64,000 bases of DNA from a virus. Both the position numbers and the translations under genes were made by a program. Positions 9,373-48,100 of this stretch are shown here, one piece after another. Under the pieces are notes generated by a model. That model did no database searches, was not told the DNA's origin, and saw nothing but the letters and a program-made list of their open reading frames with translations. The DNA is taken from positions 1 through 64,000 of IMG/VR virus record IMGVR_UViG_3300031963_008656. One strand, 5' to 3'. The stretch's first letter is position 1; the number at the start of each line of letters is the position of its first letter.

Positions 9373-9382
9373 GTTGGGCTCC

Positions 9383-9583
9383 TTAATAAGATTGATGTGA
9401 ATGTCCGATACGATACACGGGTGCGCCTGGCGTCAAATCATTTTCCGGAGTATACACTTCCGGCAACATGATATCCGCAAACTCACCGTAGGAGTAATAA
9501 CCAGACTCGGTCACTACCAAGCGAGCATCAGCGGGCAGGGCACGGAGTGCCTCAATCATTTGTGCTACAGTTATAGTGGTCAT
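9383..9583 (-). CDS. small hypothetical protein
   Basis: Start moved to Met56 (MTTITV...), so the gene lies downstream of the consensus promoter at 9605-9640 with an AAGGAG Shine-Dalgarno. Confidence 0.4.
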   Translation of the reverse strand: MTTITVAQMIEALRALPADARLVVTESGYYSYGEFADIMLPEVYTPENDLTPGAPVYRIGHSHQSY

Positions 9584-9604
9584 CTCAAGCTCCTTAGTGT
9601 CTAT

Positions 9605-9640
9605 GTGTGTATTATAGCAAATTGGGAATTTTTGGTCAAC
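9605..9640 (-). promoter_or_regulatory. consensus sigma70 promoter, repeat unit 1 (TTGACC-17-TATAAT)
   Basis: Minus-strand reading: TTGACC, aaaaattcccaatttgc, TATAAT, acacacatag. One of three copies of a roughly 50-bp unit of near-identical sequence. Confidence 0.55.
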
Positions 9641-9836
9641 CGTGCAGAGCAGTCCAGGTTTCCCAGGGCTGATCGCGAATGTATTGTATTGCCTTAACAC
9701 CACCTTTAACCCTGCAGGCATACTGCATGGCTGTGGCAAATTTGCCACGCTGACGATGTGTTTTGCGAGCTAATCCTACCGGATTGAGCTTCCATTTCCA
9801 CAGCGAGTCATATTTGCCGCGAATCATCTTGTGCAT
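9636..9836 (-). CDS. small basic protein
   Basis: 66 aa, GAGGAG Shine-Dalgarno upstream, driven by the promoter repeat unit 2. Confidence 0.4.
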   Translation of the reverse strand: MHKMIRGKYDSLWKWKLNPVGLARKTHRQRGKFATAMQYACRVKGGVKAIQYIRDQPWETWTALHG

Positions 9837-9857
9837 GGTGGCTCCTCTGTTGTCTAT

Positions 9858-9893
9858 GTGTGTATTATAGCAAAACGGTGATTTGGTGTCAAC
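9858..9893 (-). promoter_or_regulatory. consensus sigma70 promoter, repeat unit 2 (TTGACA-17-TATAAT), with the -35 inside a 9-bp hairpin
   Basis: Minus-strand reading: gcaaaacgg-TTGACA-ccaaatca-ccgttttgc-TATAAT. Confidence 0.55.
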
Positions 9894-10218
9894 CGTTTTG
9901 CTTCACGCGAACGTCCGTGTTCAGCGCAGGTGCATACTTTTGTATTAACTCGCGCTCCAACTTATGTGCGGCATCTTTGCCACGCACAATGTCCACGATA
10001 GCCACGTTCATTGCTTCAGTACCGTTTGCGCGAATTGCTTCGTACAAGTTCCAGCCTTTGTCTTCTGTGCGGCTACGGTAGATGTGCTTGTTCACACGGC
10101 TACGGAGCGACATGTTGATTGTGCGCTGGGTTTTTGCGGTAATACCAATGTAGTACTCAAATCCAATTTGGATCATGTACACTATGTGGCTGCGATCAGT
10201 ACGTTTCTTTCTCATCAT
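9889..10218 (-). CDS. GIY-YIG nuclease domain protein (homing-endonuclease-like)
   Basis: [17 protein letters not shown] matches the GIY...YIG spacing, with downstream R and E residues. 109 aa. Confidence 0.55.
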
Positions 10219-10255
10219 GTGTGTATTATAGCATTTTGGGCATTTTTGGTCAACC
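10219..10255 (-). promoter_or_regulatory. consensus sigma70 promoter, repeat unit 3 (TTGACC-17-TATAAT); the transcript may be leaderless
   Basis: Minus-strand reading: ggcatttcgg-TTGACC-aaaaatgcccaaaatgc-TATAAT. The -10 ends about 7 nt before the GIY-YIG ATG. Confidence 0.5.
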
Positions 10256-10280
10256 GAAATGCCTGTTGCAAAAATACAAC

Positions 10281-10322
10281 AAAAGTACTACTTTTTTTAG
10301 CCCTAAAAGTAGTACTTTTTTC
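10281..10322. repeat. 11-bp inverted repeat hairpin with T-run, between divergent genes
   Basis: aaaagtactac ... gtagtactttt followed by ttt. Candidate bidirectional terminator or operator. Confidence 0.4.
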
Positions 10323-10372
10323 AGCAAAAATTGAATATTTGGTCAACCAAAGTGTGGGCTATAAGTAACAGC

Positions 10373-11446
10373 ATGGACACTGATCTTTACCACGACATTT
10401 ACACTAGCGAAATTTTTGACACCAGCCAATGCATATGGCACGAAAATAATACCATGAATTTCTTTCACAGTTTGTTGATCAAACTGGGATATGAGCCTGT
10501 GCAAGATGGACACAAAACATGGCGCCGTGGAGACCGTACTGTGGTGCTGTGTCTGGTAGACGACTACATCTCTACCACATACGACTATGACACACCAGTG
10601 GCATATCGATTTGATCGCAATACCACAGTGATCACAGACAACTATGTTACCAGTCCAACCTTGTACAAGGTGTTTCAACTGCCATCCAGTTTCTTTGGCA
10701 TCTATCATTATGAACCCAAGCTGACCAATTTCAATCCCACACGCAGATTTAATTTTTCAGTCAATCGCATTGATTCCAAACGCATGTTGACCATGCTGGA
10801 AATTGCGTTGCGTTGTGAAAAGTATCCAGATGCTGAAACGTTGGACTTTATCAATTTCAACTGCTGGAGTTGGGAAGGTGACAATTCCACAGCTGAAGGA
10901 TGCAATCAAAATTTCAGAGATGCCTACGAAAAACTAGAGCCACAATACAAAGCAGTGTATGGTGACACTTTTGAACGCATTGCTCAAACCATGCCATTTA
11001 AAAATCATGACATGTCAGTTGAGCAGGCACACCTCAGTGCTTATGTGAACATGGTAATTGAAACCTACTCCAGTGACAGTTCAATTGCTCTCAGCGAGAA
11101 GATATTCCGTGCATTGGTCACTCCGGCACCCTGGCAAGTGTATGCTGGCCGCCATGCAGTGGCCTATCTGGAAAGTCTAGGATTTGACACACTCAAAGAC
11201 ATTGTCAATCACAGTTACGATGTCATGATGGAAAACAAAACTGCTGCCTATGGTGACAAACTGGTTGAATACATCTTTGCTGGCGCAGATACATTTACCA
11301 AACTCAGTGCTATGGATCGCACAGAACTGCGACATCGTTGCCTTACTGCCAGCAGACAAAATCAAAAGGTGCTCAAAGACATGAGTGCTCGTTGGCCTGC
11401 AGAGTTTGCCGCTTGGTTGCCGGCTGTTATAGACCATATCAAATAA
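10373..11446 (+). CDS. paralog-family protein A (C-terminal LGFDxF-DIV-HSYD motif); putative GT-B-like sugar transferase
   Basis: Shares ...SEK..(R/K)A.....P......LGFD.F.D(I/L)V..SYD with ORFs at 13634, 29316 and 50370. Start moved to Met15. Confidence 0.5.
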   Translation: MDTDLYHDIYTSEIFDTSQCIWHENNTMNFFHSLLIKLGYEPVQDGHKTWRRGDRTVVLCLVDDYISTTYDYDTPVAYRFDRNTTVITDNYVTSPTLYKVFQLPSSFFGIYHYEPKLTNFNPTRRFNFSVNRIDSKRMLTMLEIALRCEKYPDAETLDFINFNCWSWEGDNSTAEGCNQNFRDAYEKLEPQYKAVYGDTFERIAQTMPFKNHDMSVEQAHLSAYVNMVIETYSSDSSIALSEKIFRALVTPAPWQVYAGRHAVAYLESLGFDTLKDIVNHSYDVMMENKTAAYGDKLVEYIFAGADTFTKLSAMDRTELRHRCLTASRQNQKVLKDMSARWPAEFAAWLPAVIDHIK

Positions 11447-11447
11447 C

Positions 11448-12989
11448 ATGTGTGGTGTTCTATACGTAAAAAGCACCACTGATATACCGCTAGAAAAGCA
11501 CAACCAAGCTCTAGAAATTTTAAAAGATCGCGGTCCAGATTTTACCTGTTACCAACATCATGGTCGTGTGTTCTGTGCGCAAACAGTTCTGCACATCACT
11601 GGCAACACACAATTTTACAATCGACAGTCAGATGATTTTTTTGCATTCAATGGCGAAATCTACAACTATCGCTGGTTTGGTTCCTACAGCAACGACACTG
11701 AGCTGATGTATCGTGCTGTAAAAGACGCACCAGTAAAAAAACTCAAATACTTTGAAGGACCGTGGGCGTGGGTGTATGCTCAAGGCGACCAAGTGATATA
11801 TGCCACTGATCCACAAGGCGAAAGATGCCTGTACAGATATCAAGACAACAACATACTGATTGTGAGTTCTGAGGTGGCAGCTATTTTGGTATACATCCGA
11901 CCAAAATTACAAGACATTGATTACACAACCAAACACTATCCAATTTGGCAAAACACGCCTTGGCAAGGAATTGAACGATGTGTGCCAGGTGTGATGTATG
12001 ATCAGTCGGGCAACACCACAGTGATTGACAGTATCTTTTCATGGGCCAAACCCAGTAGTATTCAAACATTGGACCAGGCCTGGGAAGAATATCAACCCTT
12101 GTGGGAACGGGTAATCACTGACATGCGGCCAGAAACATCTTATGCCTGCACATTCAGTGGTGGGCTTGATTCTGGCGTGGTTGCAAAAAGTCTTCCACAA
12201 AGTCAGCACTATTATACCACCAACATGCTGGGCAAAGACCCAGTGAGTGAACAATCTCAACGTATGTTGGAAGGCAGTCAACGAGACAAAATCATCAACA
12301 TTGGTGTTACAGAACAGCAATGGGCCGATGCATTTGAGCAAGTGTGTCGTCGCACACTGATGCCAGTTCAAAGCTACAGTTTTGTTGGCCAGTGGATAAT
12401 TGCTCAACACTGCAAAGAACGTGTGTTGTTTACTGGTGTAGGCGCTGATGAACTGTTTGGTGGCTATGGCGTTTACTCACAGCTTGAATACACCACACAA
12501 ACAAGTGCAAGTCCTTACAGTTCATTTGGCAATGACACTCACGCTCAACAACTGTGGCAACAATGTTTGCATGCACATCAAGGTCAAGCAGAGCCAGCCA
12601 CTCTGTTGATGGATTATATCACTCAAATTTGTGCAATAGACATGCGTGGCATTGACGTTTGTACCATGGCACATGGCATTGAACCACGCTCGCCATTTGT
12701 GCATCCTAAGATCATTCGGTTTGCACTTGGCCTTCCCATGCACCTGAGGCGCGGCAAACCTTTGATTCGTCGACAGTTTTTGGCCTCCTGGCCTGAAGAA
12801 ATGATACTTCCCAAAAAAGGATTCACTGGACATTGCAATGATTCATTGCCTTGGATGAAATTCACTGTGCCAGATCAGGCTCGGGCACCACAGTGGAAGC
12901 AAATTGTCAAAACTGGATTTAGATATTATGCCAATCAATATCTTGATCAAACCACTCAGGACTTATCCGCACATGCGGATGTTGCTTGA
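11448..12989 (+). CDS. asparagine-synthase-like amidotransferase (N-terminal Ntn Cys glutaminase plus PP-loop ATP pyrophosphatase)
   Basis: Begins MCGV (Cys2 nucleophile of class II GATase). PP-loop TFSGGLDSGVV. About 513 aa, AsnB-like in length. Confidence 0.7.
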   Translation: MCGVLYVKSTTDIPLEKHNQALEILKDRGPDFTCYQHHGRVFCAQTVLHITGNTQFYNRQSDDFFAFNGEIYNYRWFGSYSNDTELMYRAVKDAPVKKLKYFEGPWAWVYAQGDQVIYATDPQGERCLYRYQDNNILIVSSEVAAILVYIRPKLQDIDYTTKHYPIWQNTPWQGIERCVPGVMYDQSGNTTVIDSIFSWAKPSSIQTLDQAWEEYQPLWERVITDMRPETSYACTFSGGLDSGVVAKSLPQSQHYYTTNMLGKDPVSEQSQRMLEGSQRDKIINIGVTEQQWADAFEQVCRRTLMPVQSYSFVGQWIIAQHCKERVLFTGVGADELFGGYGVYSQLEYTTQTSASPYSSFGNDTHAQQLWQQCLHAHQGQAEPATLLMDYITQICAIDMRGIDVCTMAHGIEPRSPFVHPKIIRFALGLPMHLRRGKPLIRRQFLASWPEEMILPKKGFTGHCNDSLPWMKFTVPDQARAPQWKQIVKTGFRYYANQYLDQTTQDLSAHADVA

Positions 12990-13635
12990 AATATTTTTCA
13001 ACCCAATCCAAGCATTGTGATTCGCTAGGAGTCACTGACCTAGTGCGAGAACTGTTGAATTCATACCAGTACAACCCGTATGGTGCCTGAGAATCTGTAA
13101 ATCTAAAAGTAAACAACTGTCCGGGATCTGCTCCGCACAGTTTGGCAAATCTATCAAAAGTTGTGATTGGTTCAAAGTCTGAATACAAGTGTGCTCGACT
13201 GTGATGTGTGGTAATAAATCCTGGCACAGTTTGTATTTCGGGCAATCGTTCTAGACATCGCAATCGTGAATCTCCATTGCCAGCAAGATATGTGCCATCA
13301 CCCTGATCTAACACCAAAAATGGTTTTATAATGCCCTGTGCTCGTATGTCTCGTATCCACATGTTGAGCTTGACAAGATTGGCAATGTCATAGTGATTGC
13401 GCGGCTCAGCTAGAAACCCTGCTGGCCCATCATGATCTAGCCACTGATTGGCCCATTCGCAAAGATCATTCAGTCGTTGGTTGGTTGAAAAGTGTCGAAA
13501 TTCGCAACTGGGATTCCAGAACAAGCAATGCATGCCTTGATTTGAACTGATCTGAATGGGATCTTGTTTGCTGGGCCAGTGAAATTCCACAAGAGGATTA
13601 TTCCAATACATAGATCTACTTAGTAAATAGGTCAT
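12919..13635 (-). CDS. hypothetical protein
   Basis: 238-aa ORF. Its 3' end overlaps the 3' end of the AsnB-like gene by 71 nt. Its ATG overlaps the ATG of the divergent gene at 13634 (CATG). Confidence 0.45.
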   Translation of the reverse strand: MTYLLSRSMYWNNPLVEFHWPSKQDPIQISSNQGMHCLFWNPSCEFRHFSTNQRLNDLCEWANQWLDHDGPAGFLAEPRNHYDIANLVKLNMWIRDIRAQGIIKPFLVLDQGDGTYLAGNGDSRLRCLERLPEIQTVPGFITTHHSRAHLYSDFEPITTFDRFAKLCGADPGQLFTFRFTDSQAPYGLYWYEFNSSRTRSVTPSESQCLDWVEKYFKQHPHVRISPEWFDQDIDWHNI

Positions 13636-14593
13636 GGACTATACATCTTTGTTTGCCAACACACTCTCTGGCTTGGGGTTTGATCTGCATGCAGTTTACA
13701 ACTGCTTTGATCCGCCATATCGTCCAGAAACTGGTTGGCCGTTAAAGTTGCCCAACATTGAATTCAAACACAACACACTGCTGTTGTTGCATTTTCAAGA
13801 TTTCATAACACCATGTCAGGGTCGCATACTTGAACTGGAACAAGTAGAACGCCACTATGGCGCCAATGCACATCGTGTGCTGGTAACTTATTGGAGTCAT
13901 AATTTACAAAAATACTATCAAGGACCAGTGAACCTTATCGAATTCAGCAATCACAACATGGCCACTGTGACTGCTATCCAAGCTCGTGAGTCACAATGGA
14001 CCAATTCAATAAATGCAAAAACTTCAGCATGGCAATGCCTCAATGGTCGCATGTGCTTGCATCGTCGACGTGCTGTGGACATCTTGCAACATTGGCCTAA
14101 TGGTGTGTTAAGTTACGGCAACGACATTCCACTTGATGCTTGGGCTTATGACACCTATCGCGGCACAGAAAACGAAGATAACTTCATGCGACTGTTGCCG
14201 GTATATGCAAAATGTCAAGTGAACATTGTGACTGAAACACAGTATGATGAGCCGCCAGGCATTGTGAGCGAAAAAACATTGATGGCGATGATTGCACAGC
14301 AGGTACCCATTGTGATTGGTCACCAAGGTATTGTGCAAGACTGTAGAGAGCTTGGGTTTGACATGTTTGACGACCTGGTGGACACCAGCTATGATAGCAT
14401 GTCCAATGACGTTCGAGTCGAACAAGCCATAATGAAAAATCAAGATCTCATACTGGGAAAAATTAACCTTGCGCCATACCAAGAGCGACTGCAAAAACAA
14501 AGAAGTTTTTTGCTTGATGAATTTATAACTGGCACACAACAACGGTACATTCAAGACGTTGAACAGTTGGCTAAAAAACTAAGTGCGATTTAA
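13634..14593 (+). CDS. paralog-family protein B (LGFDMFDDLVDTSYD)
   Basis: Same C-terminal motif block as 10373, 29316 and 50370. Confidence 0.55.
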   Translation: MDYTSLFANTLSGLGFDLHAVYNCFDPPYRPETGWPLKLPNIEFKHNTLLLLHFQDFITPCQGRILELEQVERHYGANAHRVLVTYWSHNLQKYYQGPVNLIEFSNHNMATVTAIQARESQWTNSINAKTSAWQCLNGRMCLHRRRAVDILQHWPNGVLSYGNDIPLDAWAYDTYRGTENEDNFMRLLPVYAKCQVNIVTETQYDEPPGIVSEKTLMAMIAQQVPIVIGHQGIVQDCRELGFDMFDDLVDTSYDSMSNDVRVEQAIMKNQDLILGKINLAPYQERLQKQRSFLLDEFITGTQQRYIQDVEQLAKKLSAI

Positions 14594-14944
14594 AAACTTC
14601 AACCACTTTTCTAGATCGCCGTACATGGCCAACATCACTGCCTGCTGACTGCCAAACAAAACAATTTGCGGATGCTTGCCAATTTTAATGTAGTAAGGGC
14701 AATCTAACTTTTTATCCAAGGTCAGTAAATGTTTGGGTTTAGCAACCAAGTCAGAAGGAGCATCAAATGCGTATGTTTCTAAGTCACAAGTACCAATTGC
14801 TGTATATCCAGCATTGGTCAGTCTGAATCCGCCGCCATCTCTAAAGTTCATCCACCATGACTTGCAGGCTTCGTCGTAGGTCAGTTGGTCTTCCGACGGA
14901 AGACCTGTCAGTATGCGTTCGGTAATCTGTTGTTTAGTTAACAT
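14579..14944 (-). CDS. hypothetical protein
   Basis: 121-aa ORF. Confidence 0.45.
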   Translation of the reverse strand: MLTKQQITERILTGLPSEDQLTYDEACKSWWMNFRDGGGFRLTNAGYTAIGTCDLETYAFDAPSDLVAKPKHLLTLDKKLDCPYYIKIGKHPQIVLFGSQQAVMLAMYGDLEKWLKFLNRT

Positions 14945-19678: not shown

Positions 19679-20524
19679 TTATTTGCCCCATCCATTACCC
19701 CAGAGGTCCACATGCAATCGTGGGCTGTACCAATAACCTCGTTTGAGTGCTTCGTCGGCAACGTGAATTCTATTGCCATCATACACACTCACAACACCGC
19801 CAACAGGCATCACAAAAACTGGTCCGCTAAATCCACGGGTTCGATAGTCGTCAACTACTAGATCAAGCTCTTTGAAATCATCAATGTGACCAACAACAAA
19901 CTTCAAATAGGTAACACCGTGAGTTTCGTAATCCCAAATAATGTCAGGTTTGATAGCATCTTCATACTTTTCACCACTGACACTAAGTTTAGGACTTACT
20001 GAGAATGTGATCTCGCCAAACCATTCAGACAGATACTGTTTGAATTCTCTTGTGAGTTCTTGAGTACCATTGGTTTCAAATGTAATGTGTCGCAGTCCAC
20101 GTTCGTGCAACAGATTCAACAGTTCAGGATATGCACGTTGCCAACCTAGCAATGGCTCGCCACCTGTGATCACAAGATGCACTGAATTGCCGTTTGGTTG
20201 TTGCCAGTGGCCATTGGGCAACAGCGCAGCCATTTTGTCAACTAACTCTTGTGCTGTGTATGTGGGACTTAGATGTTTAAAGTCAGGATGCCAACTTGCA
20301 TACGAATCGCATCCTGTATTAACCAACGGGAGCTCTTCAAAAGTCTTGTAGAGATGAACGCTCTTTGCGACGTCATCTGCCTCAGTGCTCTTATCACCGG
20401 GTTGGCATCCAAATCCCGAACACGTAAAGTTGCAACCGAAGGTTCGTAAGAAGATAGAAGGAACTCCAATATAGCGTCCTTCGCCCTGAGCAGAATAAAA
20501 TAGTTCACTTACTTTTAATTTCAT
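19679..20524 (-). CDS. queE: 7-carboxy-7-deazaguanine synthase (radical SAM)
   Basis: FYSAQGEGRYIGVPSIFLRTFGCNFTCSGFGC aligns to E. coli QueE F.TLQGEG..GVP.IF.R..GC...C..C. Confidence 0.8.
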   Translation of the reverse strand: MKLKVSELFYSAQGEGRYIGVPSIFLRTFGCNFTCSGFGCQPGDKSTEADDVAKSVHLYKTFEELPLVNTGCDSYASWHPDFKHLSPTYTAQELVDKMAALLPNGHWQQPNGNSVHLVITGGEPLLGWQRAYPELLNLLHERGLRHITFETNGTQELTREFKQYLSEWFGEITFSVSPKLSVSGEKYEDAIKPDIIWDYETHGVTYLKFVVGHIDDFKELDLVVDDYRTRGFSGPVFVMPVGGVVSVYDGNRIHVADEALKRGYWYSPRLHVDLWGNGWGK

Positions 20525-24112: not shown

Positions 24113-24733
24113 TTATGCTTGATTGTCTGCAGCCAGCTTTTTCTGCAAGTGATTCAACAAGAAACCATACGCAGGCAGAATAACCAACAGACTCACAATG
24201 ATCTTACTGATTGAATTGTTGGTTGCAACAATGTGCCAGTTAGCAGCCATGAACTCATTTGCGCCACCAGCAAAGGCAGTAAAGAAGAACACATAGGTAT
24301 CAAAGAATGTGCTCACAATTGAACTCAATGCAGGAGCAATCCACCAAGTGGCGTACTTTTCACGAATGTATTGGAACACGTACACATCAAGCAAGTTGCT
24401 CACAAAGTATGCAACACCCGAGCCAAGACCAATGCGGAAAGCAACTGAGTCAGGAGCACCGCCCAGTTTGACCACTGCCATTGACACAATGATAGCAGGG
24501 ATGAATGCCAATGCAATCACCGCACGACCAGTTTGTTTGCCTAACATTCGCACAGTCAAGTCGGTCAACACAACCACTAGTGGGAATGTGAATGCGGCTG
24601 CTGCCAATGGTGCACCAAACACTGAGAATTTGAATTGCACAATGTAGTTGCTGATAGCAATGATAATGATATGTGCCAGCATGAGCTTGTAGGCCAATGC
24701 ACGGTCAACGCCACTTAAGATTCGATCTAACAT
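24113..24733 (-). CDS. yhhQ: queuosine-precursor transporter (YhhQ/VUT family, DUF165)
   Basis: 206-aa polytopic membrane protein; ...VYFVSNLLDVYVFQYIR... resembles YhhQ. Confidence 0.65.
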   Translation of the reverse strand: MLDRILSGVDRALAYKLMLAHIIIIAISNYIVQFKFSVFGAPLAAAAFTFPLVVVLTDLTVRMLGKQTGRAVIALAFIPAIIVSMAVVKLGGAPDSVAFRIGLGSGVAYFVSNLLDVYVFQYIREKYATWWIAPALSSIVSTFFDTYVFFFTAFAGGANEFMAANWHIVATNNSISKIIVSLLVILPAYGFLLNHLQKKLAADNQA

Positions 24734-24750: not shown

Positions 24751-25257
24751 TTAAACGAATAGATCTTCCATCCACTCGCGATGGCCTTCTCTAAAAGCCA
24801 TATTGCTCTGTGTTTCGCGCACTTCCACACGATAGCACCAGAGACGCTCTGCTTCACCCGGTCCCCACAGGTCCGGAATGTAAACACCGTTCACATACTT
24901 GTACAGCATGTCTGCCAAGCCTTCACACCCTAAGCGTGGCAGGATTGTGAGTTTGGCCATTTTTTTCTCTTGCAAGAGCTTGTATGTCGCCAGCTCTGGA
25001 TCATCTGCAGACACCAGCAAGGTATGATCAAATTGATCTTCTAATGTCTTTTTAAGTTCTTTGAGACCGCCATAGTCAGCGGCCCAGTTACGCACATCCA
25101 GGTTGTCTGTGCCAAAGTAGAACTTCATTGAGAATGAGTAACCGTGAATTAGATTGCAGTGGCTGTCGGCACGCCATTGACGGTATGCGCAGGGAAAAGC
25201 ATCATGATACTCTTTGGTGCTGGTGTACTTGTATTGTACTGGTTGATTTGTTGCCAT
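24751..25257 (-). CDS. queD: 6-carboxy-5,6,7,8-tetrahydropterin synthase
   Basis: CxxxHGH zinc motif (HCNLIHGYSF), about 168 aa. TATAAT and AGGAGG sit immediately upstream. Confidence 0.8.
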   Translation of the reverse strand: MATNQPVQYKYTSTKEYHDAFPCAYRQWRADSHCNLIHGYSFSMKFYFGTDNLDVRNWAADYGGLKELKKTLEDQFDHTLLVSADDPELATYKLLQEKKMAKLTILPRLGCEGLADMLYKYVNGVYIPDLWGPGEAERLWCYRVEVRETQSNMAFREGHREWMEDLFV

Positions 25258-27487: not shown

Positions 27488-27898
27488 TCATACGCAAACT
27501 TCCTCTTTGAGATATCGTTTGAGTTCTTTGTCATTGGGTTCTACAGTATAGTTCTTCTTGAAAAAAATTTCATAACTATCACTGCCGTATTTGCCAATGC
27601 CGTACAAATCGGTAGCATCATCACCATTCCAAGTCATGTAGTCTTGACTCATTTTTTTCAATCTGGTGTATCTTACATTAGCCATACCTAATGGTGCAAT
27701 AATGCTTTTTACAAAATCTTCATCGGCTGCGATCAATGCTTCCGGCGTTGGGAACCAGTATAAAAATTCTGGCAAGGTTGTTTTTACAGATTTGCGGCCT
27801 GTTTGATTCAACATGATCACTCCAACCATGTGTTCCCATGAGTTAGAGATTTGTTGTTGAACCATCAGATCATCTCGTAATGCATGAAAAAATATCAT
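27488..27898 (-). CDS. hypothetical protein
   Basis: 136-aa ORF. Confidence 0.45.
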   Translation of the reverse strand: MIFFHALRDDLMVQQQISNSWEHMVGVIMLNQTGRKSVKTTLPEFLYWFPTPEALIAADEDFVKSIIAPLGMANVRYTRLKKMSQDYMTWNGDDATDLYGIGKYGSDSYEIFFKKNYTVEPNDKELKRYLKEEVCV

Positions 27899-28587
27899 CG
27901 TGGTGCAAAGTCCTGTTGTAGTTTGATGTTGTCAAAGAATTCTTTTTTTACACTTTGGTCTGATTTAAACGCACCGTGTAAAACTGTTGTTTGGGTGAGA
28001 CTAGAGTGAGCCATGATACCGCGATTCTCACAACAACCATGGGTAGCTTGTATATAAACTGCAACATCCTTGGACCCGGTCGCGAATTCAATTTCGCGAG
28101 CAATATCCATACATAGCTCTTCTTGGAGAGTGCCTCGACGGGCACACCATTGCGCAATCCTGGTATACTTGGATAGACCAATAAGTTTGGGGCCAGCAAT
28201 GATTCCAATATAAGCCACACCCGTAACAGGCTGGTGATGATGCGAACACATGCTCTTAAGCTCTGAACGCACCACAAGCATACCTTCGTATGCTCCGTCC
28301 GTATCGTTTGGGAAAGCCGTAGCATTAGGGCTCGTCTCATAGCGACCAGCCATAATTTCATTGAAGTACATTTTTGCAAGGCGTTGCGCCGTGCCTTGTG
28401 AGTTAGGATCATTTTCCCTGTCAATTAGTAGTGTATCGAGAACTTGTTCAAATGCTTGAGTGGCCTCCATAATCAAATGTTCACGATCTGACTCAGCAAC
28501 ATAATCACTGATGTTGTCACCAGCCCAGAATCTCTTGCCGTCTGCCTTCATGCGTTCGCGAAGGACTTGTGATAGATTTTTTTCCAA
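27895..28587 (-). CDS. folE: GTP cyclohydrolase I
   Basis: SMCSHHHQPV (compare CEHH) and ATHGCCENRG (compare HMCMxxRG). TTG start in the track. Confidence 0.8.
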   Translation of the reverse strand: MEKNLSQVLRERMKADGKRFWAGDNISDYVAESDREHLIMEATQAFEQVLDTLLIDRENDPNSQGTAQRLAKMYFNEIMAGRYETSPNATAFPNDTDGAYEGMLVVRSELKSMCSHHHQPVTGVAYIGIIAGPKLIGLSKYTRIAQWCARRGTLQEELCMDIAREIEFATGSKDVAVYIQATHGCCENRGIMAHSSLTQTTVLHGAFKSDQSVKKEFFDNIKLQQDFAPR

Positions 28588-28658: not shown

Positions 28659-29326
28659 TAGATTAATTGATTTGTGACCCATCTAATTAACCTATCTGCT
28701 ATAACTTGATGGCCCAGTTGATTGGGATGGCCACCACTACTGCTAAACAATTCATGTCCTCGTTCCATACTGGTAAATTTCACTCCCAGTATGTCAGCAC
28801 AAGTTACCTTGCCATTCTCATACATGTATCTAGTGTCTACTTCAGACCAAAATTTTATCTTTTGCCAGCCAGCAACAAATAGTGCATTTACCCTGGCTTC
28901 TCTGCAAATTCCTTGCACAGTCAAGATAGCAGTGTTCACAGCATAATCGTGTGCGGCATCGCTAGAAAAATACTTGTAATACAATTCGTTTAGATTGTGT
29001 TCTGTGGGATTGGCATTGGGCACAGCCACTCCGTTGGGTTGCAAATGTACCAGCCGATCATGCCAGGTCATGTGACGTTGTTGAGAAGTCAAAAACACCA
29101 ATACAGTGTACCTATTGTCTGGATTTTCTCTTTCAGTGCGGTACTTGTCTAAAAAGCCTTTGAGTTGCAACACTGTGTGAGGAATGCTGGATCCAGGTAC
29201 TGCAACATTATCCACACTGGTCACATTCAAACGGTCACCAATGATCTGGCCAAATGATTTTTCGCCTGGCTCAAGTTCTGCACCATATGCCCAACTGTCT
29301 CCTAAAATAGCAAGTCTATGAATCAT
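28655..29326 (-). CDS. GDSL/SGNH-family hydrolase
   Basis: ILGDSWAYGAE block I with Ser nucleophile. Confidence 0.55.
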   Translation of the reverse strand: MIHRLAILGDSWAYGAELEPGEKSFGQIIGDRLNVTSVDNVAVPGSSIPHTVLQLKGFLDKYRTERENPDNRYTVLVFLTSQQRHMTWHDRLVHLQPNGVAVPNANPTEHNLNELYYKYFSSDAAHDYAVNTAILTVQGICREARVNALFVAGWQKIKFWSEVDTRYMYENGKVTCADILGVKFTSMERGHELFSSSGGHPNQLGHQVIADRLIRWVTNQLIY

Positions 29327-30317
29327 TCTTATCAAACTCTGTTTCCACGCGGCTGTACCAAGCATCTACGTCTCGTGCATATTCTCTCAACAGATTATAG
29401 TTGTTTTCAATGCGTGTGGACAACTGTTGTTTTAACTCACAACATTGTCCCACAGTCAATTGATCTAGCCTGTGTATTTCTTTCAGCACAGCATGTAATC
29501 TCTGATCTTCATCTGTGATGTTGTCATAACTGTGTGTGACAATGTCATCAAACACATCAAACCCCAGTTTACGCACTTCAGCAACCAGACCAGGAACTGC
29601 AAACCAAATTGGAATTTGTCTCAAGCCAAATGCCTTGAATGTTTTTTCACTGATAAAATGACTGCGCCACACGCCAACATCAGACTGACTGCCAGACTCT
29701 GCAACAATATTGAACATGCAGGTTTTGAACATGCTGTTGGTTTGGTCATGTTCTAGCCCAGTTGATCGTTCCACAATCCCATCCAACAACAGCGGCAATT
29801 CTCTTGGTATAATTTCTCGGTATTCGTTGGTAATGTTATTGGCACCCATGCTACCAAAGCTGAGTCTGACACTAGAGATGTCCGTCAACCCAGCAGCAAG
29901 TCTAGCACGACTTATACTGGGCCTACGAATCAAACACAAAAACTTTGTGTCAATGCCAGTAGCGGCACCAGACGCATCAAGACGATCAAACCAACCGGCA
30001 AAATTTGTTAGAAAAGTAGGTTGCGACAGTGCTTTGTACGAAAGGCCATCAACGTCAACCACAGCGTTGAATACCACCAGGATATCTTCAACTGGTAGTG
30101 TTTGCAAATACGTAATTAGATTGCCGATCACTTTGTCACACTGGCCTTCGGCTCTAAAATCTACTATGAGTTTTTTGCCGTGCAAGTCGGCTCGTGACAT
30201 TCCGCTGGTTGCTAAATCTTGTTCTACTCTAGGACCAGGGTTATCAAGATACCATTGTGCCATGTGCAATGCACCATAATGCACAAGATTGCGTCTTGAA
30301 AAACTAAACCACTTCAT
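29316..30317 (-). CDS. paralog-family protein C (LGFDVFDDIVTHSYD)
   Basis: Same C-terminal motif block as 10373, 13634 and 50370. Confidence 0.55.
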   Translation of the reverse strand: MKWFSFSRRNLVHYGALHMAQWYLDNPGPRVEQDLATSGMSRADLHGKKLIVDFRAEGQCDKVIGNLITYLQTLPVEDILVVFNAVVDVDGLSYKALSQPTFLTNFAGWFDRLDASGAATGIDTKFLCLIRRPSISRARLAAGLTDISSVRLSFGSMGANNITNEYREIIPRELPLLLDGIVERSTGLEHDQTNSMFKTCMFNIVAESGSQSDVGVWRSHFISEKTFKAFGLRQIPIWFAVPGLVAEVRKLGFDVFDDIVTHSYDNITDEDQRLHAVLKEIHRLDQLTVGQCCELKQQLSTRIENNYNLLREYARDVDAWYSRVETEFDKNDS

Positions 30318-37026: not shown

Positions 37027-38565
37027 TTATATTTCTGTGCTCAGGTTGTCCAATTTGTCACTGTCCAAATCTACTTCGTCGGGCTCCGACTCACTGTCCT
37101 CATATTCAAACAATGCATTGAATTGAGTAGTAGCATTCACAGTCTTCTTGCCCTTAAAGCCTCGTGTGCCCACAATCTCCATCCAATATGTACTGTATTT
37201 CTCAACAATAGATTCGGCTTGTTCTCTTGTGGGTGCAGTGAAAATATCTTCCACAATGTCTTCAAAGTAAGCATAGTCACCAGTGCTACGACGCATCATG
37301 GCAGGATGTTCTCCTGCATCAAAACGTCTATTGGCTTCTTGTACTGCGGTCAAGTGCATCCAGACATTATGGCCCATGAGTAAAGCATATGAGAAACTGT
37401 CCCACGATGTCTTGCCTTCTTTACCATTTTTATTTAGGTCGCCTGGCTTGTAGATACAGATGTCTTTCATCTTGAGAAGTTTGCTTATGGGGCTATCTTC
37501 CCAACGTGGTACTACTCCATCGGCAACTATACTTGTACCCCAGGCACGTGTGTCAGTGGCGTACTTTTTGTCGTCGGCTGTAGGAGCCATGCGATACGAC
37601 CATTTTGAGTTGTTTTCAAAGACATTTTCAAAGTAGACCTGTCCGTTTGCTGTTGCAAGGAACGGACTGGCGCAGTCAAACGAGATTGTGAAGTTTGGAT
37701 TGACATATTTTCTCACGGCCCTTTGGATTACAGTTAATAAAACAGCCCACTCCAGTTTGGAGGTTCCCAAGAAGTGCATCCAATCATGGACACCTTCTTG
37801 AAGTAAATTGTCATAGCGCAATGCCACAATACGTTTGAGTACCAAGTGAACATCACACATGTTTTGTCCGCCCATGGCCCAGCCATTGAAATGCGTATCT
37901 GGATATTTTTGTGGATCGCAATAATCCTTCATCATCTGATACCATTCTTCTGCATGAGTATGGTTACCACCTTGCAACACATTCAAGAACTTGGTACCAC
38001 CGTTTGCCACACCCTTGCGATGTTTCATGAAGTATTCGTTGTTGTAATGTGTTGCCTTGACTGCCTCATCCAAAGTGCTAATGCCAGACTTCCATCCATT
38101 CTTTTCATTGATAACAAAACTTGGAATATCAAGTGTCATAGCATAGTCTGCTATACCATCTAACCAGGCTAGTGCTTGTTCTCGTTTGGCCTGAGCCTTG
38201 GCACAACCTGAGTTGGCTCGCCAATCACCTTCCCACACACCTTTAGCAATCTGGAAACCACCAGAGTCGCCCAGCATGATTGTGCCAGGCTCTCTGTTCC
38301 GTACCATGTCTTCTGACCAGTCTTGTTTAGCAAGATCGAGATTTGCATGCCCTCCAGAGTATAGGGACCAACGGTAAGGGAAAAGTGCTTTGGTAGAGTT
38401 AAGCCAATTAAGTTGCTCCATGTCACTAAGGCCCTGAGGCAATCTCGCCGGATCCACATATGGTTCATTCCTTTGCTTGCCTATGAACGTGGCATAGAAC
38501 CCGCTGATGGCCGGAAGGAACACAGCGTAGTCCGATTGCTTGGCAGTTAAGTCGTCTTGGGTCAT
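37027..38565 (-). CDS. dpdA: DpdA-like DNA-guanine transglycosylase (TGT family)
   Basis: IMLGDSGGFQIAKG catalytic motif (compare TGT ...DSGGFQ...); 512 aa. Confidence 0.7.
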   Translation of the reverse strand: MTQDDLTAKQSDYAVFLPAISGFYATFIGKQRNEPYVDPARLPQGLSDMEQLNWLNSTKALFPYRWSLYSGGHANLDLAKQDWSEDMVRNREPGTIMLGDSGGFQIAKGVWEGDWRANSGCAKAQAKREQALAWLDGIADYAMTLDIPSFVINEKNGWKSGISTLDEAVKATHYNNEYFMKHRKGVANGGTKFLNVLQGGNHTHAEEWYQMMKDYCDPQKYPDTHFNGWAMGGQNMCDVHLVLKRIVALRYDNLLQEGVHDWMHFLGTSKLEWAVLLTVIQRAVRKYVNPNFTISFDCASPFLATANGQVYFENVFENNSKWSYRMAPTADDKKYATDTRAWGTSIVADGVVPRWEDSPISKLLKMKDICIYKPGDLNKNGKEGKTSWDSFSYALLMGHNVWMHLTAVQEANRRFDAGEHPAMMRRSTGDYAYFEDIVEDIFTAPTREQAESIVEKYSTYWMEIVGTRGFKGKKTVNATTQFNALFEYEDSESEPDEVDLDSDKLDNLSTEI

Positions 38566-40077: not shown

Positions 40078-41022
40078 TTATTTAGAATTTGCAACTATTC
40101 TGGCTAATGTTTGTCCGCCTCTAAGCGAATCTATTTCTCCAGGTTTTTGGAACTCAAACCATGCAACGTCAGCAGGGCCATTGTGACGATGCATGAGCTC
40201 AAATCCCAATGTTTCAGCATGTTCTTGAATCAACGATCCTGGAGTGTAGCACATGTAACTGCGCTCGGCCAATGCAACTCCGTGAGCACGATCACAGTCG
40301 TTGTAGGTAAAAAACACCACTCCGCCAGGCCGAAGTTTTTTCCACAGCTCATCCAAGTACTGACATATCAATTCCAATGGTTTGTAATTGAAGTAATTGT
40401 AAGCAAAGCAATATCCAAACTGAGCATCTGGCAACAGTGCAAGTATTGGTTTGCCTAGAATCTCTTCAGCTGTGTATAATCTCAGTCTACGTCGATATTC
40501 TTCAGTAAATCCTTGACAGGCAGGTTCTAGCAATTCAAGATTGTTGTCAATCATGTACAACGGGTCCAATGGTACCAATTGCTCCACGTGTTGTTCCAGT
40601 GCTGGTCTGAAAATCAATCCAGGCACACGCCAATCTGTGTAGCGTAAAATTCTACCTTGTAGTAGTTCAGCACTTTCGGGATCGCAACGTAGCCTACGAT
40701 TAAGAATGTGTTCGGTAGTGTCATAACACATTTCATGCTGGAACAATCTCAAACTTTCACGCAAGTATTCTGGATGCTGTGCAGTCATAGCGTCAATCAC
40801 GTGACTGCGTATAGCGTCAATGGTATGATTGAATTGCTGGAAACTTTCATTAATTTTGTTACCATTGGCAATGATGCCTTGTGTAAATTTGTTAAATTGC
40901 ACATTGTGGTTGGCAATTTTGTGTATCACAGCATCAAGTCTGTGACGGGCTTCTTGATGAATTTGACCTAACTCAAATTCATCAATGTGGTTCAAGTAAT
41001 CAACAAGTTCGCTCAGTTTCAT
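40078..41022 (-). CDS. putative SAM-dependent methyltransferase
   Basis: LRPGGVVFFTYND post-motif-II-like segment. Start moved to the Met overlapping the polymerase stop. Confidence 0.4.
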   Translation of the reverse strand: MKLSELVDYLNHIDEFELGQIHQEARHRLDAVIHKIANHNVQFNKFTQGIIANGNKINESFQQFNHTIDAIRSHVIDAMTAQHPEYLRESLRLFQHEMCYDTTEHILNRRLRCDPESAELLQGRILRYTDWRVPGLIFRPALEQHVEQLVPLDPLYMIDNNLELLEPACQGFTEEYRRRLRLYTAEEILGKPILALLPDAQFGYCFAYNYFNYKPLELICQYLDELWKKLRPGGVVFFTYNDCDRAHGVALAERSYMCYTPGSLIQEHAETLGFELMHRHNGPADVAWFEFQKPGEIDSLRGGQTLARIVANSK

Positions 41023-43679
41023 TCGAATGAAAATAGTGATGTAAAAGTATTTTCTGTGTTGGTAGCAGACGCAAGGTCCCATTCCAACACACCCAGCAAG
41101 TTGTCGACCTTTTGATCCACAACAGTTGCTTCCATTAGCCCATCGTCAAACGGCAGTTCAGTAAACCATGCAGGCAATCTTTGCTCATCTGTAGGATAGC
41201 CAATTGATGTCCATCCAAGTGCATTTGATTTGAGTTTGCACACAATGGTTTTCATACCATCCACAACCTGCATTGAGTAGTTGTCTGAATTCATTCTACG
41301 CATTTGATTCCAATTCATTGCGGCACGAACGTGTCCTGGCATGTTTGCTTTGCCCAGGCGTGCTTCCTCTGCCGCATATTTGGTCAAGTTGTTCACACGC
41401 TTAGGCGATCCTTTTTCCCAGCCTGGACGCTCTTTAAACTCATACTTGAATTCTCTAATGCGTTCAATGATCTCATCTCGTTGTGTACCTGCCAGTACTT
41501 TATTTAGAATTTCTAACAGGAAGTCTTGAATTACTTTGGGGGTATCTGAACGCTTGAGATCCAAGCCCATGGCCTTGGTCTTGCCAATCTTGCCGTCTAC
41601 ATCCAGTCGCTTGCCTTCCAAGTCAATGATGTTCACAGCATAACGCTTCTTGGTAATGAACAAACTGCGGTCAGCAACCAGTTCACGACCTGCTTTGATC
41701 AACGCACCCATGTCTCGGGGACAATGGAACGCCTGTTCCATAAACGCTGGAAAGCTCTCATTCACTTGATCAGCAATTGAGTCGTACAGTTGGATGCAGA
41801 TTTCTTTTGACCATTCCATCCGTCCTTCTGCAACTTCTTTTTCCAGTATGGGCCACGCAGAAAAATAGCATGAGTCTGTATCACCATAGATGATGGCCTT
41901 GCCTGTGTGATCATATTCGCCTGTGATGCACTCATTGATGTGAGCATCCATGTGCTTGGCAATACTTCGACCTGCCAGTGTGGTTGACTGCCCAATACGC
42001 TTGTCAAAGAATCTACAGCCTGGATTCAAAATAGCACCATACAAGCTATTCAAGTTAATCTTCTTGACCAATTGACGTTTGTCCCAGAACGCAATCTCTT
42101 TGGGATCCTTGGTCTGCTTCTTCTTGGCTTGCAGTTCTTGTCGTTCACGATACCAGCGTTCCAGCAGGCCAGGGATGATACCTTTCTTCTCGTAAGTGAG
42201 AATGGTACCATTGGCAGTAAGGATCCAAGGTTGATTTGAGTCAAAGATCATGTGCCAGATTTCCATAGCAGAGTGTACTGACTCTTCGCCACCTTCCCAG
42301 TCAATGGTAATTTCTGTACCACGTTGCTGTTCCATCACAGCAGTATACTCTAAACTGGCAAACAAGCCTTCCCATGCAGCCGCAAAACTTTGTCCCTTGG
42401 CCATGTTGGATTTGATCAACTGATCAGTCATGGTTTGCCGCAATTGGCCCACCACAGTTTCTGGACCCATGTTCATGGCACGAATTGCAGATGGATATAG
42501 ACTGTTGATGTCCACTGACCCAATCCACATGTGCAGGCCCTTTTTAGGATATGCCACATAAGCACCTGCGGCCTGGGTGTCATCATCTGTAAGGCGTTGC
42601 TTACGATTGGGCACAACCATTCCACGCTCGTGTGCTTCATTGATAATGGCCTGTTCAGTCACTGCCACAGCACCCATTGTGGTTTGTAGCAACACAGTAT
42701 TGGCGTGTGCCAGTTCATTGGCTAGGTCCAAGAAACGCAATTTCTTGTCTAACTTGGCAATGATCATGGTGTCTTGGCGGTTGTACTCAATAAACTTTTT
42801 GAAGTGCTGGTTGTACAACTGATCCAGTGTGCCTTCAAATTGTGTTTTGCGTTCACCCAGCTCGTACTCGCCGATAGCATCCAAACTATATGAGTGGCGT
42901 TCCTCGTATGTGTACTTGCGATACAACTGCATGTAGTCCATATGCACACGACCGACTAAGTCGTAAGTTTGATTCTCTGCGCCAAAGCGTTCAAACATTC
43001 TTTGCTTGGGAAACTGTCCCCACAAACAAAAGCGTCGTGTGTCATCCTTGCTGAGTATTCTTGTGGTACGATTTACTGTGTAAGGAATGTCGTAACCTTC
43101 TGAGTTCCAACCTGTAAGTACATCCGCACCTTCAATCACATCCAAGAACATTTTGATCATGTCTTCTTCACGCTCAAACAAGATGGTATTTTCAAACTCG
43201 GCCACCAGCTCTTGTGCAGTATCCCAGCTTAGATGTTTAGGCGGCACCGCCAGTGTGATCATCTGATCCAGCCAATCTAAATATACAGATATAGCAGTGA
43301 TAGGATTGAAGGGATCTGCCACAGGCGAGAATCCACGCTCTGCATCAAACGCAACTTCGATGTCAAAAAATGCTGTGTGCAGTTCTGGAGCATCTTGGTC
43401 TTTGTAGTTCTCTTCCAAACATCTAAAGATAGGATTGATGTCTGATTCATACAACTGCTTGCCCGACTGGCTGCGAACTTCCTTGCGAAATTCTTTGTTG
43501 TTGCGCGATGAGAATCTATTTACAGGTGTGCCGTAGATGCTTTGAAACTTGCCTCTAGGATCGTCATAATAGAAAATGTAGTTGGCAGGATATTCCTTGT
43601 AGACTCGTTCGCCATCGCGGCGTTCTACTACATGTATGCGATCGTGTTCACGATCAAAAAGTGCGTCGATATAACTCAT
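41019..43679 (-). CDS. family B DNA polymerase (T4 gp43-like) with 3'-5' exonuclease domain
   Basis: IIYGDTDS motif C, Exo I FDIEV, KINLNSLYG motif A region; 886 aa. Confidence 0.85.
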   Translation of the reverse strand: MSYIDALFDREHDRIHVVERRDGERVYKEYPANYIFYYDDPRGKFQSIYGTPVNRFSSRNNKEFRKEVRSQSGKQLYESDINPIFRCLEENYKDQDAPELHTAFFDIEVAFDAERGFSPVADPFNPITAISVYLDWLDQMITLAVPPKHLSWDTAQELVAEFENTILFEREEDMIKMFLDVIEGADVLTGWNSEGYDIPYTVNRTTRILSKDDTRRFCLWGQFPKQRMFERFGAENQTYDLVGRVHMDYMQLYRKYTYEERHSYSLDAIGEYELGERKTQFEGTLDQLYNQHFKKFIEYNRQDTMIIAKLDKKLRFLDLANELAHANTVLLQTTMGAVAVTEQAIINEAHERGMVVPNRKQRLTDDDTQAAGAYVAYPKKGLHMWIGSVDINSLYPSAIRAMNMGPETVVGQLRQTMTDQLIKSNMAKGQSFAAAWEGLFASLEYTAVMEQQRGTEITIDWEGGEESVHSAMEIWHMIFDSNQPWILTANGTILTYEKKGIIPGLLERWYRERQELQAKKKQTKDPKEIAFWDKRQLVKKINLNSLYGAILNPGCRFFDKRIGQSTTLAGRSIAKHMDAHINECITGEYDHTGKAIIYGDTDSCYFSAWPILEKEVAEGRMEWSKEICIQLYDSIADQVNESFPAFMEQAFHCPRDMGALIKAGRELVADRSLFITKKRYAVNIIDLEGKRLDVDGKIGKTKAMGLDLKRSDTPKVIQDFLLEILNKVLAGTQRDEIIERIREFKYEFKERPGWEKGSPKRVNNLTKYAAEEARLGKANMPGHVRAAMNWNQMRRMNSDNYSMQVVDGMKTIVCKLKSNALGWTSIGYPTDEQRLPAWFTELPFDDGLMEATVVDQKVDNLLGVLEWDLASATNTENTFTSLFSFE

Positions 43680-47926: not shown

Positions 47927-48100
47927 TCTTATTCCTTTTGTATTCCTTGGGCGTGTTAGGCGTAGGATCAGTTGTATATTTACCACTCAACAAGGATCCG
48001 CCTGATCTTGACACCATGCCTAAGGCCTGGCTCACAGGTGCTATACTACCAGCACTGGTGCCGCCCACTGACGCATTTTCCATGATTTCTTGAATTTTCA

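Follow-up and report, generated by a model that had tools for sequence, protein, structure and literature searches.

Escherichia coli asparagine synthetase B (AsnB) and human ASNS are two-domain enzymes in which a Cys1 N-terminal nucleophile (Ntn) domain carrying Asn74-Gly75-Glu76 and Asp98 is joined to a domain with an SGGxDS PP-loop, Asp351-Glu352, Lys429, and Lys449. All of these elements recur in AsnBL, an AsnB-like amidoligase encoded by the open reading frame (ORF) at 11448..12989 (+) in a 64,000-nucleotide stretch of viral DNA, positions 1 to 64,000 of IMG/VR virus record IMGVR_UViG_3300031963_008656 (hereafter the window). Its gene is paired with one for a ParB/Srx (sulfiredoxin)-fold partner, ParBL, and lies among GT-B-like paralogs designated X, Y, and Z. 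By profile comparison and residue conservation, AsnBL is a two-domain amidoligase of the asparagine-synthetase-B superfamily, and it probably turns a carboxylic acid other than aspartate into an amide. The single most likely substrate assignment, a tentative one, is an optional amidation of 7-carboxy-7-deazaguanine, as the free base (CDG) or in DNA (dCDG), to 7-amido-7-deazaguanine (ADG or dADG).

Four described systems bear on this assignment. QueC and the QueC* of Campylobacter phage CP220, which act from CDG through ADG to preQ0 (7-cyano-7-deazaguanine), activate a carboxylate through an ATP-dependent PP-loop reaction that is followed by ammonia attack, the chemistry proposed here for AsnBL. 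QueC belongs to a different family of the PP-loop superfamily, however, and lacks the fused Ntn amidase that AsnBL carries. Gat-QueC, represented by gp06 of phage 9g and archaeal homologs, resembles AsnBL in joining a class II amidotransferase to a PP-loop domain and acts in a deazaguanine pathway, but it converts preQ0 to archaeosine, an amidine, rather than a carboxylate to an amide, and the C-terminal domain of AsnBL is of the AsnB type. The Dpd system combines DpdA, a transglycosylase of the tRNA-guanine transglycosylase (TGT) kind, the ParB-fold NTPase DpdB, and DpdC, which yields dADG; the window likewise encodes a TGT-like protein, a ParB-fold protein, and an enzyme proposed to yield dADG. 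The DpdC amide arises by hydration of the nitrile of preQ0-DNA, whereas the proposed AsnBL amide would come from a carboxylate. DpdB is the ParB-fold ATPase that DpdA needs for preQ0 insertion into DNA, and its structural neighbors are PadC, Noc, ParB, and Srx (PMC10164549). The base dADG itself is already on record from phage DNA, where in other phages QueC* makes it (PMC10516641). Finally, SpCmoY, a 271-residue protein with no amidase domain, is a phage AsnB-like ligase that joins glycine to 5-carboxymethylcytosine in DNA; a large cluster of related ligases with a glutamine-hydrolysing domain is predicted to use ammonia, and ParB-domain (PF02195) proteins co-occur with phage CmoX/CmoY (PMC12783734).

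AsnBL and its relation to asparagine synthetase

The AsnBL ORF is the longest in its neighborhood and encodes 513 residues from an ATG start, beginning MCGVLYVK. The sequence-only reading had singled out the Cys2 nucleophile of this MCGV start and an SGGLDS PP-loop, and both are borne out: the ORF is real, and the PP-loop (S237-G-G-L-D-S242; 12156..12173, +) is the sole [ST]GGxD[ST] match within a real ORF in a six-frame scan of the window. An N-terminal class II (Ntn, Cys2) glutamine amidotransferase domain of ~200 residues, matched by Pfam GATase_7 (3.8e-8, residues 60-147), precedes a PP-loop adenylating domain at ~224-459, matched by Asn_synthase (2.6e-23, residues 224-459). In PHROGs the protein falls into phrog_16728, a family of unknown function (6.4e-32). 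A family profile built from 30 sequences aligns with E. coli AsnB in hhalign over 399 columns and both domains (probability 99.3%, E 4e-20), and among solved structures the profile lies nearest to human ASNS and E. coli AsnB; next come the hydroxyamidotransferase 7ylz (1.1e-12) and CarA (7.5e-5).

Conservation of the catalytic residues was read from an alignment of 120 homologs with E. coli AsnB, in E. coli numbering. Cys1 is kept in 119 of the 120. The equivalents of Arg30, Asn74-Gly75-Glu76, and Asp98 in the first domain, and of the PP-loop, Gly347, Asp351, Glu352, Tyr357, Arg400, Lys429, and Lys449 in the second, are kept in 119-120 of them; the S, G, G, and D of the PP-loop are invariant. 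In a mechanism drawn from these conserved residues, the Ntn domain (Cys2 nucleophile, Asn-Gly oxyanion hole, Asp83) would free ammonia from an amide donor, most likely glutamine. The PP-loop domain would adenylate a carboxylate with ATP, and the ammonia would turn the acyl-adenylate into a carboxamide.

Source annotations name the homologs "asparagine synthase (glutamine-hydrolysing)", and the nearest solved structures are themselves asparagine synthetases. An ordinary asparagine synthetase, carried as an auxiliary metabolic gene that boosts asparagine during infection, is nevertheless extremely unlikely. A profile comparison with AsnB had been proposed as a check, and AsnBL scores 137.7 bits against the NCBIfam model TIGR01536 (cut-off 267.1) and 77.2 bits against the AsnB model NF006949 (cut-off 499). 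Identity to E. coli AsnB is ~25% over the aligned columns. In AsnB, Glu348, Asp384, and Arg387 bind aspartate and commit the enzyme to beta-aspartyl-AMP formation. The Glu348 equivalent is V/L/I/A across the 120 homologs, hydrophobic or small; Asp384 is D/H/N/Q, Arg387 is Q/P/S/A, and Lys376 is Q/R, in a part of the alignment that is less certain past residue ~360. Because the commitment residue Glu348 is hydrophobic or small family-wide, the acceptor would not be aspartate. The setting differs as well, for AsnB acts in amino-acid metabolism, whereas AsnBL is tightly paired with ParB-fold and GT-B genes in a phage island that is read as a modification (hypermodification) island. On this sequence evidence AsnBL is no bona fide asparagine synthetase.

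A wider search with AsnBL through 1.84 billion cluster representatives delimits the family. Its core is small, with members of ~460-520 residues, and is surrounded by a shell of ~590-residue proteins at 30-34% identity that retain E/D at position 348, so that the loss is confined to the core. Among these representatives no informative fusion of AsnBL was found, one 854-residue protein being left out. The Arg49 equivalent, which in AsnB binds the carboxylate of glutamine, is Val in AsnBL; this replacement was considered as the mark of a dead or retargeted glutaminase and rejected, as the ~590-residue relatives that keep E/D348 also lack Arg49.

AsnBL is also unrelated to the QueC and Gat-QueC families. 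No PF06508 (QueC) match is found in AsnBL at E <= 0.01 in Pfam, and its sequence lacks the CxxCxxC of the QueC zinc motif C(x)8CxxCxxC (as given in PMC13329287). The SGGxDS motif alone is common to AsnBL and QueC. The parallel that the sequence-only reading drew with Gat-QueC reduces to architecture, and kinship was rejected when the family profile was set against phage 9g gp06 in hhalign (probability 0.15%, E 0.39).

An acceptor of another sort has also to be weighed, such as the carboxylate of a peptide or protein or a small metabolite from the radical-SAM (S-adenosylmethionine) and oxygenase chemistry of the island, as has a reaction that is not an amidation at all. Beta-lactams, lasso-peptide isopeptide bonds, and hydroxamates are likewise made by enzymes with AsnB-like folds. 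The matches of the AsnBL profile to 7ylz and CarA fit this idea, as do weak NCBIfam matches to lasso and macrolactam cyclases and the many neighboring genes with no assigned function. It is nonetheless unlikely: Cys1 is nearly invariant in the AsnBL family, which cyclases and beta-lactam synthetase do not match in conservation of this nucleophile, and no genes for precursor peptides or ribosomally synthesized and post-translationally modified peptides were noticed near AsnBL.

The ParB-fold partner and the CmoX/CmoY comparison

ParBL is encoded convergently with AsnBL at 12919..13635 (-), and the 3' ends of the two genes overlap by 71 nt. The ORF spans 238 codons, but the start shared by the family is Met9, which gives ~230 residues from nt 13611. 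Pfam ParB_N matches at 0.003. The structure model has a pLDDT (predicted local distance difference test) of 90.6, and its best Foldseek matches are Noc, PadC, KorB, ParB, sulfiredoxin, and SbnI, all of them weak (E >= 2.4e-3, TM ~0.25). An invariant GxGDSRLRC stands where ParB has its GxxR nucleotide-binding box, and ParBL probably binds NTP. A ParB-fold gene adjoins AsnBL in every AsnBL locus examined, and copies beside AsnBL score 300-429 bits in hmmsearch against 15-72 bits for copies elsewhere; by these scores the AsnBL-adjacent proteins are a distinct subfamily.

The reported fold neighbors of DpdB (Noc, PadC, ParB, and Srx) overlap those of ParBL, a likeness of reported neighbors only. 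DpdB has a DGQQR motif, whereas ParBL has GDSR and is only ~230 residues long. By analogy with DpdB and with the ParB-domain proteins of the CmoX/CmoY systems, a ParB-fold partner would imply a reaction at the level of DNA. A reading built on this likeness makes AsnBL and ParBL together a DNA-level amidotransferase that converts TGT-inserted CDG into 7-amido-7-deazaguanine, which is possible but rather unlikely. In a bolder version, the three GT-B paralogs would then glycosylate the deazaguanine and give a DNA modification not yet described. If the DNA-level reaction takes place, dADG would have a third, non-orthologous source in addition to QueC* and DpdC, and AsnBL would follow CmoY as the second case of an AsnB-superfamily ligase that uses a carboxylated DNA base as a handle. 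Were AsnBL to act on CDG or dCDG, the pairing of an AsnB-like ligase with a ParB-fold protein would mark DNA hypermodification through a carboxylate handle in general.

CmoY-type ligases share with AsnBL a phage origin, the AsnB-superfamily PP-loop fold, a nearby ParB-domain protein, and a hydrophobic residue at the Glu348 position. The glutamine-hydrolysing cluster around A0A7T0Q3R0 has the same two-domain layout, as likened by its description, and the segment SGIGAD of SpCmoY corresponds to TGVGADE in AsnBL and SGEGSDE in E. coli AsnB. AsnBL might accordingly be imagined to amidate another carboxylated DNA base, such as 5-carboxymethylcytosine, with glutamine-derived ammonia; its architecture fits the predicted glutamine-hydrolysing cluster, and ParB-domain proteins accompany CmoX/CmoY (PMC12783734). 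This is very unlikely all the same. BLASTP similarity of AsnBL to SpCmoY from S-B43 is at the level of noise (E 0.035-0.059), and no C5-cytosine methyltransferase motif of the SPPC or PCQ type occurs in the six frames of the window. Counterparts of SpCmoX and SpCmoA were not found by tblastn in the window, its flanks, or ~100 related loci. The closest AsnBL homolog in a cultured phage, annotated "ASNS" in cyanophage S-SCSM2R (26% identity; tblastn otherwise returned fragments), lies in an uninformative neighborhood, and no close CmoX homolog (E <= 1e-30) occurs in that genome. By analogy, then, the AsnBL system works like the CmoY kind in pairing an AsnB-type ligase with a ParB-fold protein, but the gene content of the window, its flanks, and the related loci places it outside the 5-carboxymethylcytosine pathway.

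Two further leads of this comparison were set aside. A methyltransferase just outside the window (locus L101) was tried as CmoA and is a generic methyltransferase, and isoelectric points as a hint of DNA binding are uninformative, since SpCmoY acts on DNA and is also acidic.

Deazaguanine genes, distribution, and the proposed acceptor

The window is part of an abundant uncultured jumbo phage. Its PolB (41019..43679) is 51% identical to that of the Sinorhizobium jumbo phage Phosso and 42-47% identical to those of Atu_ph07, Vibrio phage 2.275.O, and the GAP32/CBB group, and its genome backbone is common to the Pseudomonas jumbo phage PA5oct. Megablast of positions 9000-15000 gave no nucleotide match to a cultured phage. 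The metagenomic contigs that carry AsnBL homologs reach 347 kb, and proteins identical to those of the window occur on contigs of the 0.2-1 Mb class. Contigs with such identical proteins extended the view by ~10 kb past each end of the window, within a genome that is probably >200-300 kb.

QueD-like and QueE-like genes, in line with the QueDE named in the sequence-only reading, are present, and so is FolE. GTP cyclohydrolase I (FolE) is encoded at 27895..28587 (-; Pfam 2.8e-39). A QueD/PTPS-like T-fold protein lies at 24751..25257 (-; Pfam PTPS 5.2e-16; TIGR03367 4.2e-9, below cut-off). A QueE-like radical SAM enzyme, predicted for the CDG-making step, lies at 19679..20524 (-; phrog_2076 5.3e-55); all of its best NCBIfam matches are QueE, below cut-offs, and it is 36% identical to the QueE-like proteins of nt-1/KVP40. 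In the QueD-like protein the motif SHCNLIHGYSF (CNLIHGY) replaces CxxxHGH, with Tyr at the position of His16 in E. coli QueD. This variant is found clade-wide in more than 30 related loci (e.g., L015, L036, and L088) and is neither canonical QueD nor DpdL, whose motif is LxxxHRHxF; no T-fold protein of the DpdL type was seen in the window. A transporter of the YhhQ type for the queuosine precursors preQ0/preQ1 (preQ1 being 7-aminomethyl-7-deazaguanine) is encoded at 24113..24733 (-; Pfam Vut_1 2e-21; NF008406 4.7e-49; TIGR00697 102 bits, above the cut-off of 51). Its gene sits between GT2-like and QueD-like genes and occurs in some lineages only. QueC is found neither in the six frames of the window nor in the ~10-kb flanks, and its absence, as the sequence-only reading had it, holds for that span and cannot be asserted for the whole genome.

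DpdA, which the same reading took for granted, has a candidate at 37027..38565 (-). This 512-residue protein, putatively of the TGT superfamily, carries GDSGGFQ, LQGG, GWAMGG, FLGTSK, and SFDCASP in a motif scan, that is, DSGGFQ, QGG, GxAxGG, LGxxK, and FDCxxP in TGT order. The aspartate of FDC is the catalytic nucleophile of Tgt, and hhalign sets the last four motifs, this aspartate included, in register with E. coli Tgt. No match was found in Pfam, PHROGs, NCBIfam, or PDB sequences, nor against 9g DpdA. A homolog with 36% identity is gp168 of PA5oct, and in both phages the gene lies between PolB and QueE; the TGT-like and QueE genes are thus common to PA5oct and the window phage. PA5oct DNA resists several restriction enzymes with G-containing sites, and a modified G has been proposed (PMC12191111). 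Further homologs in Phosso and Vibrio phage 2.275.O are all annotated as hypothetical. The protein is a candidate for a new DpdA-like subfamily, and transglycosylase-dependent deazaguanine modification of DNA is likely in this clade.

From these genes we infer a phage that produces CDG and places a deazaguanine in its DNA. CDG is the only carboxylated base or metabolite whose synthesis the visible sequence encodes, and it is tentatively proposed as the AsnBL acceptor; by analogy, CDG to ADG is plausible chemistry for the enzyme. The C7 carboxylate would be amidated on the free base or, as CmoY and DpdA/DpdB/DpdC suggest by analogy, after insertion into DNA. Either way 7-amido-7-deazaguanine would result, and the reaction would be an optional tailoring step that diversifies the modification rather than an obligatory replacement of QueC, with AsnBL and the convergent ParBL forming an accessory two-gene module among the GT-B paralogs. 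If AsnBL acts on CDG or dCDG, deazaguanine pathways are completed or diversified by a family outside current QueC/DpdA-based screens. Whatever its substrate, the AsnBL family is mislabelled asparagine synthase in databases, a clade of jumbo phages is defined whose deazaguanine gene set lacks QueC, and a TGT-like enzyme has been overlooked by profile libraries.

The distribution of AsnBL argues against an obligatory QueC substitute and is compatible with an optional step. The family is abundant, with 1439 homologs at E <= 1e-5, and was met here only in the context of uncultured phages. In the loci retrieved through AsnBL itself (L001-L011 and L101-L107), AsnBL is followed by a convergent, slightly overlapping gene for ~230 residues and then by one to three paralogs of ~320 residues; X lies upstream in some lineages, and porin or other genes take its place in others. 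A sample unbiased for AsnBL is provided by 80 QueE-anchored related viral loci, across which FolE, QueD-like, QueE, and sugar genes are broadly conserved. Presence was counted in the 24 that reach at least 3.5 kb past g121 (14579..14944), which flanks the X-Y locus. In seven loci without AsnBL, X and Y are adjacent and the ~630-bp gap encodes a distant ParBL relative (hmmsearch E between 1e-10 and 1e-20 in six loci and 0.004 in the remaining one, against 1e-90 to 1e-129 for AsnBL-adjacent copies). X, a ParB-like gene, and Y make up the conserved core; AsnBL is an accessory gene that is inserted there and accompanied by a ParB-like variant of its own.

Several observations weigh against CDG or dCDG as the acceptor. 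AsnBL stands at its usual position in only 4 of the 24 countable loci (absent from 20), and no QueC-like PP-loop ORF lies within 10 kb of QueE on any of the 80 related contigs; AsnBL is therefore accessory and no obligatory QueC replacement, and the QueC-less que set without AsnBL is the normal state in most relatives. The necessity implied in calling AsnBL a QueC substitute is weakened accordingly. There is precedent for phages that have DpdA, FolE, QueD, and QueE and yet lack QueC, and the account given of them invokes DpdL, a decarboxylase candidate, rather than an amidotransferase (PMC10516641). AsnBL lies 7 kb away from the que genes on the opposite strand, with a 5'-3' exonuclease and replication genes between. 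Its nearest neighbors are glycosyltransferase-like, one of them translationally coupled, which fits sugar chemistry equally well. Of the three zinc histidines expected in QueD, two are replaced in the QueD-like protein, and even CDG production is therefore something to be read from the gene set. The TGT assignment combines the motifs with a weak hhalign match to E. coli Tgt (E 0.0019, probability 14.5%, shallow profiles), so that the DpdA expected earlier is matched by a gene with TGT motifs and has little profile backing. QueC, CmoX/CmoA, or a sugar dehydrogenase could lie beyond the window and the ~20 kb seen around it. The literature offered no AsnB-like enzyme tied to 7-deazaguanine.

Wherever an AsnBL-bearing locus extends to the site of QueE beside the cytidylyltransferase gene, QueE is present, which says little because QueE is a core gene of the clade. 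A weak association in favor of the deazaguanine assignment is that with YhhQ, which occurs in three of six AsnBL-bearing and none of 13 AsnBL-less loci in which both positions are covered (p = 0.02, uncorrected for phylogeny).

Other genes are interspersed with the que set, encoding B12-radical-SAM C-methyltransferase-like, SGNH-like, GT2-like, HIT, and small HhH-GPD proteins as well as nucleotide-sugar enzymes. A 660-residue B12-binding radical SAM protein (21241-23223, -) adjoins QueE and best matches KedN5-type C-methyltransferases (1.8e-76, below cut-off). Next to it lies a gene for a 236-residue protein (20528-21238, -) with an SGNH-like N-terminus (FGCSFT), and the two suggest further tailoring chemistry in the cluster. 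A gene at 27488-27898 (-) shares 4 nt at its 5' end with the FolE stop. Its product, an HhH-GPD protein of the EndoIII/Ogg-like type, has only 136 residues, fewer than a complete glycosylase needs, and might be related to base exchange or counter END-type nucleases that sense modified bases. Between the QueD-like and FolE genes, the products of 25360-26016 (-) and 26423-26869 (-) contain HxD...H-like segments (PHSDIRG...WHG and AHKDVG...H) that, judged by eye only, are reminiscent of cupin/2-oxoglutarate oxygenases.

In many relatives a phosphoribosyltransferase gene, often with MazG, lies directly beside QueE (L107 1323-2966; L079-L084; L003; L007), and the same arrangement is seen in the cultured Synechococcus phage BUCT-ZZ01 (L093 9855-10316). 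No such gene was found in the 64-kb window. This placement hints at a nucleotide-level route from CDG and phosphoribosyl pyrophosphate, instead of or besides base exchange, a route like that of 7-deazapurine nucleoside antibiotics. PP-loop proteins of 377-429 residues (WSGGTDSH and YSGGADSH) are encoded beside TctC-like genes in L005 (6840-7970 and 19529-20815) and L007 (17815-18984); their length is not QueC-like.

GT-B paralogs, sugar genes, and other features of the window

X is encoded at 10373..11446 (+) as 357 residues, as called on identical contigs (the mechanical ORF runs from TTG 10331), and its stop codon lies 1 nt ahead of the AsnBL ATG. Y, a glycosyltransferase-like paralog of 319 residues, follows at 13634..14593 (+), head-to-head with ParBL. 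A third paralog of X and Y, Z (29316..30317, -; 333 residues), shares a C-terminal motif with them, is 25% identical to Y, and adjoins FolE and sugar-nucleotide genes. Structure models indicate a GT-B fold for all three, while no glycosyltransferase family was detected by Pfam in 30 members of the Y family. The plus-strand setting beside a glycosyltransferase-like paralog, described from the letters alone, is thus found on both sides of the AsnBL/ParBL pair.

AsnB-like amidotransferases are established in glycan clusters, and WbpS-type enzymes in polysaccharide clusters are, like AsnBL, glutamine-dependent and encoded beside glycosyltransferases and nucleotide-sugar genes. AsnBL could in the same way amidate an acidic sugar, uronic or otherwise, at its carboxylate, with the sugar either linked to a nucleotide or already part of a growing glycan. 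The flanking GT-B enzymes would use the product to decorate virion proteins, the host envelope, or a DNA-linked sugar. This alternative, the main rival of the deazaguanine assignment, is quite possible, though on balance it leans toward the unlikely. In its favor, X, Y, and Z are modelled with GT-B folds, X is translationally coupled to AsnBL, and the window is rich in nucleotide-sugar genes, among them those for a DegT aminotransferase, an epimerase/dehydratase, an RfaE-domain-II-like nucleotidyltransferase, an FkbM methyltransferase, a sulfotransferase, and a PIG-L deacetylase. Genes for UDP-glucose/ManNAc dehydrogenases, moreover, lie between QueE and cytidylyltransferase genes only in AsnBL-bearing loci (L007 3168-4406; L104 1-2896; L106 359-1591; L107 3148-4380; probably L003), and none occurs in the QueE-anchored loci that lack AsnBL. 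The link is confined to one AsnBL-bearing subclade, however, where it counts against a deazaguanine substrate but may be phylogenetic, and no UDP-sugar dehydrogenase is encoded in the 64-kb window itself. AsnBL also falls far below the cut-offs of the glycan-associated models TIGR03108 (45 bits vs 817, less than its score for the generic AsnB model) and TIGR03104 (61 vs 570), and its ParB-fold partner is untypical of glycan pathways. The associations of AsnBL with YhhQ and with UDP-sugar dehydrogenase are weak, phylogenetically uncorrected, and point in different directions. We rate AsnBL as belonging with the AsnB-superfamily ligases of phage nucleic-acid or glycan tailoring, with amidation of CDG or dCDG as the preferred assignment.

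The AsnBL module shows no anomaly of base composition, and a promoter and terminator scan of its region returned the counts expected from shuffled sequence. Just ahead of the module, at 9611-10253 (-), small minus-strand ORFs are preceded by three near-consensus sigma-70 promoter-like sites (12/12, 11/12, and 11/12 matches), all of which have the TG of an extended -10.

Elsewhere in the window, a 1389-residue protein (56219-60388, -), conserved on identical contigs, matches Amidoligase_2 (3.3e-8) and, weakly, a nucleotidyltransferase; it is a candidate for another carboxylate-amine ligase. Genes unusual for a phage, all on the minus strand, encode a Gram-negative porin, a fatty-acid desaturase, an SPFH/Band 7 protein, and a ferritin-like protein (1670-2560, 4549-5313, 5770-6564, and 47486-47986), and ClpB- and DnaJ-like genes lie just past the window end (L098).

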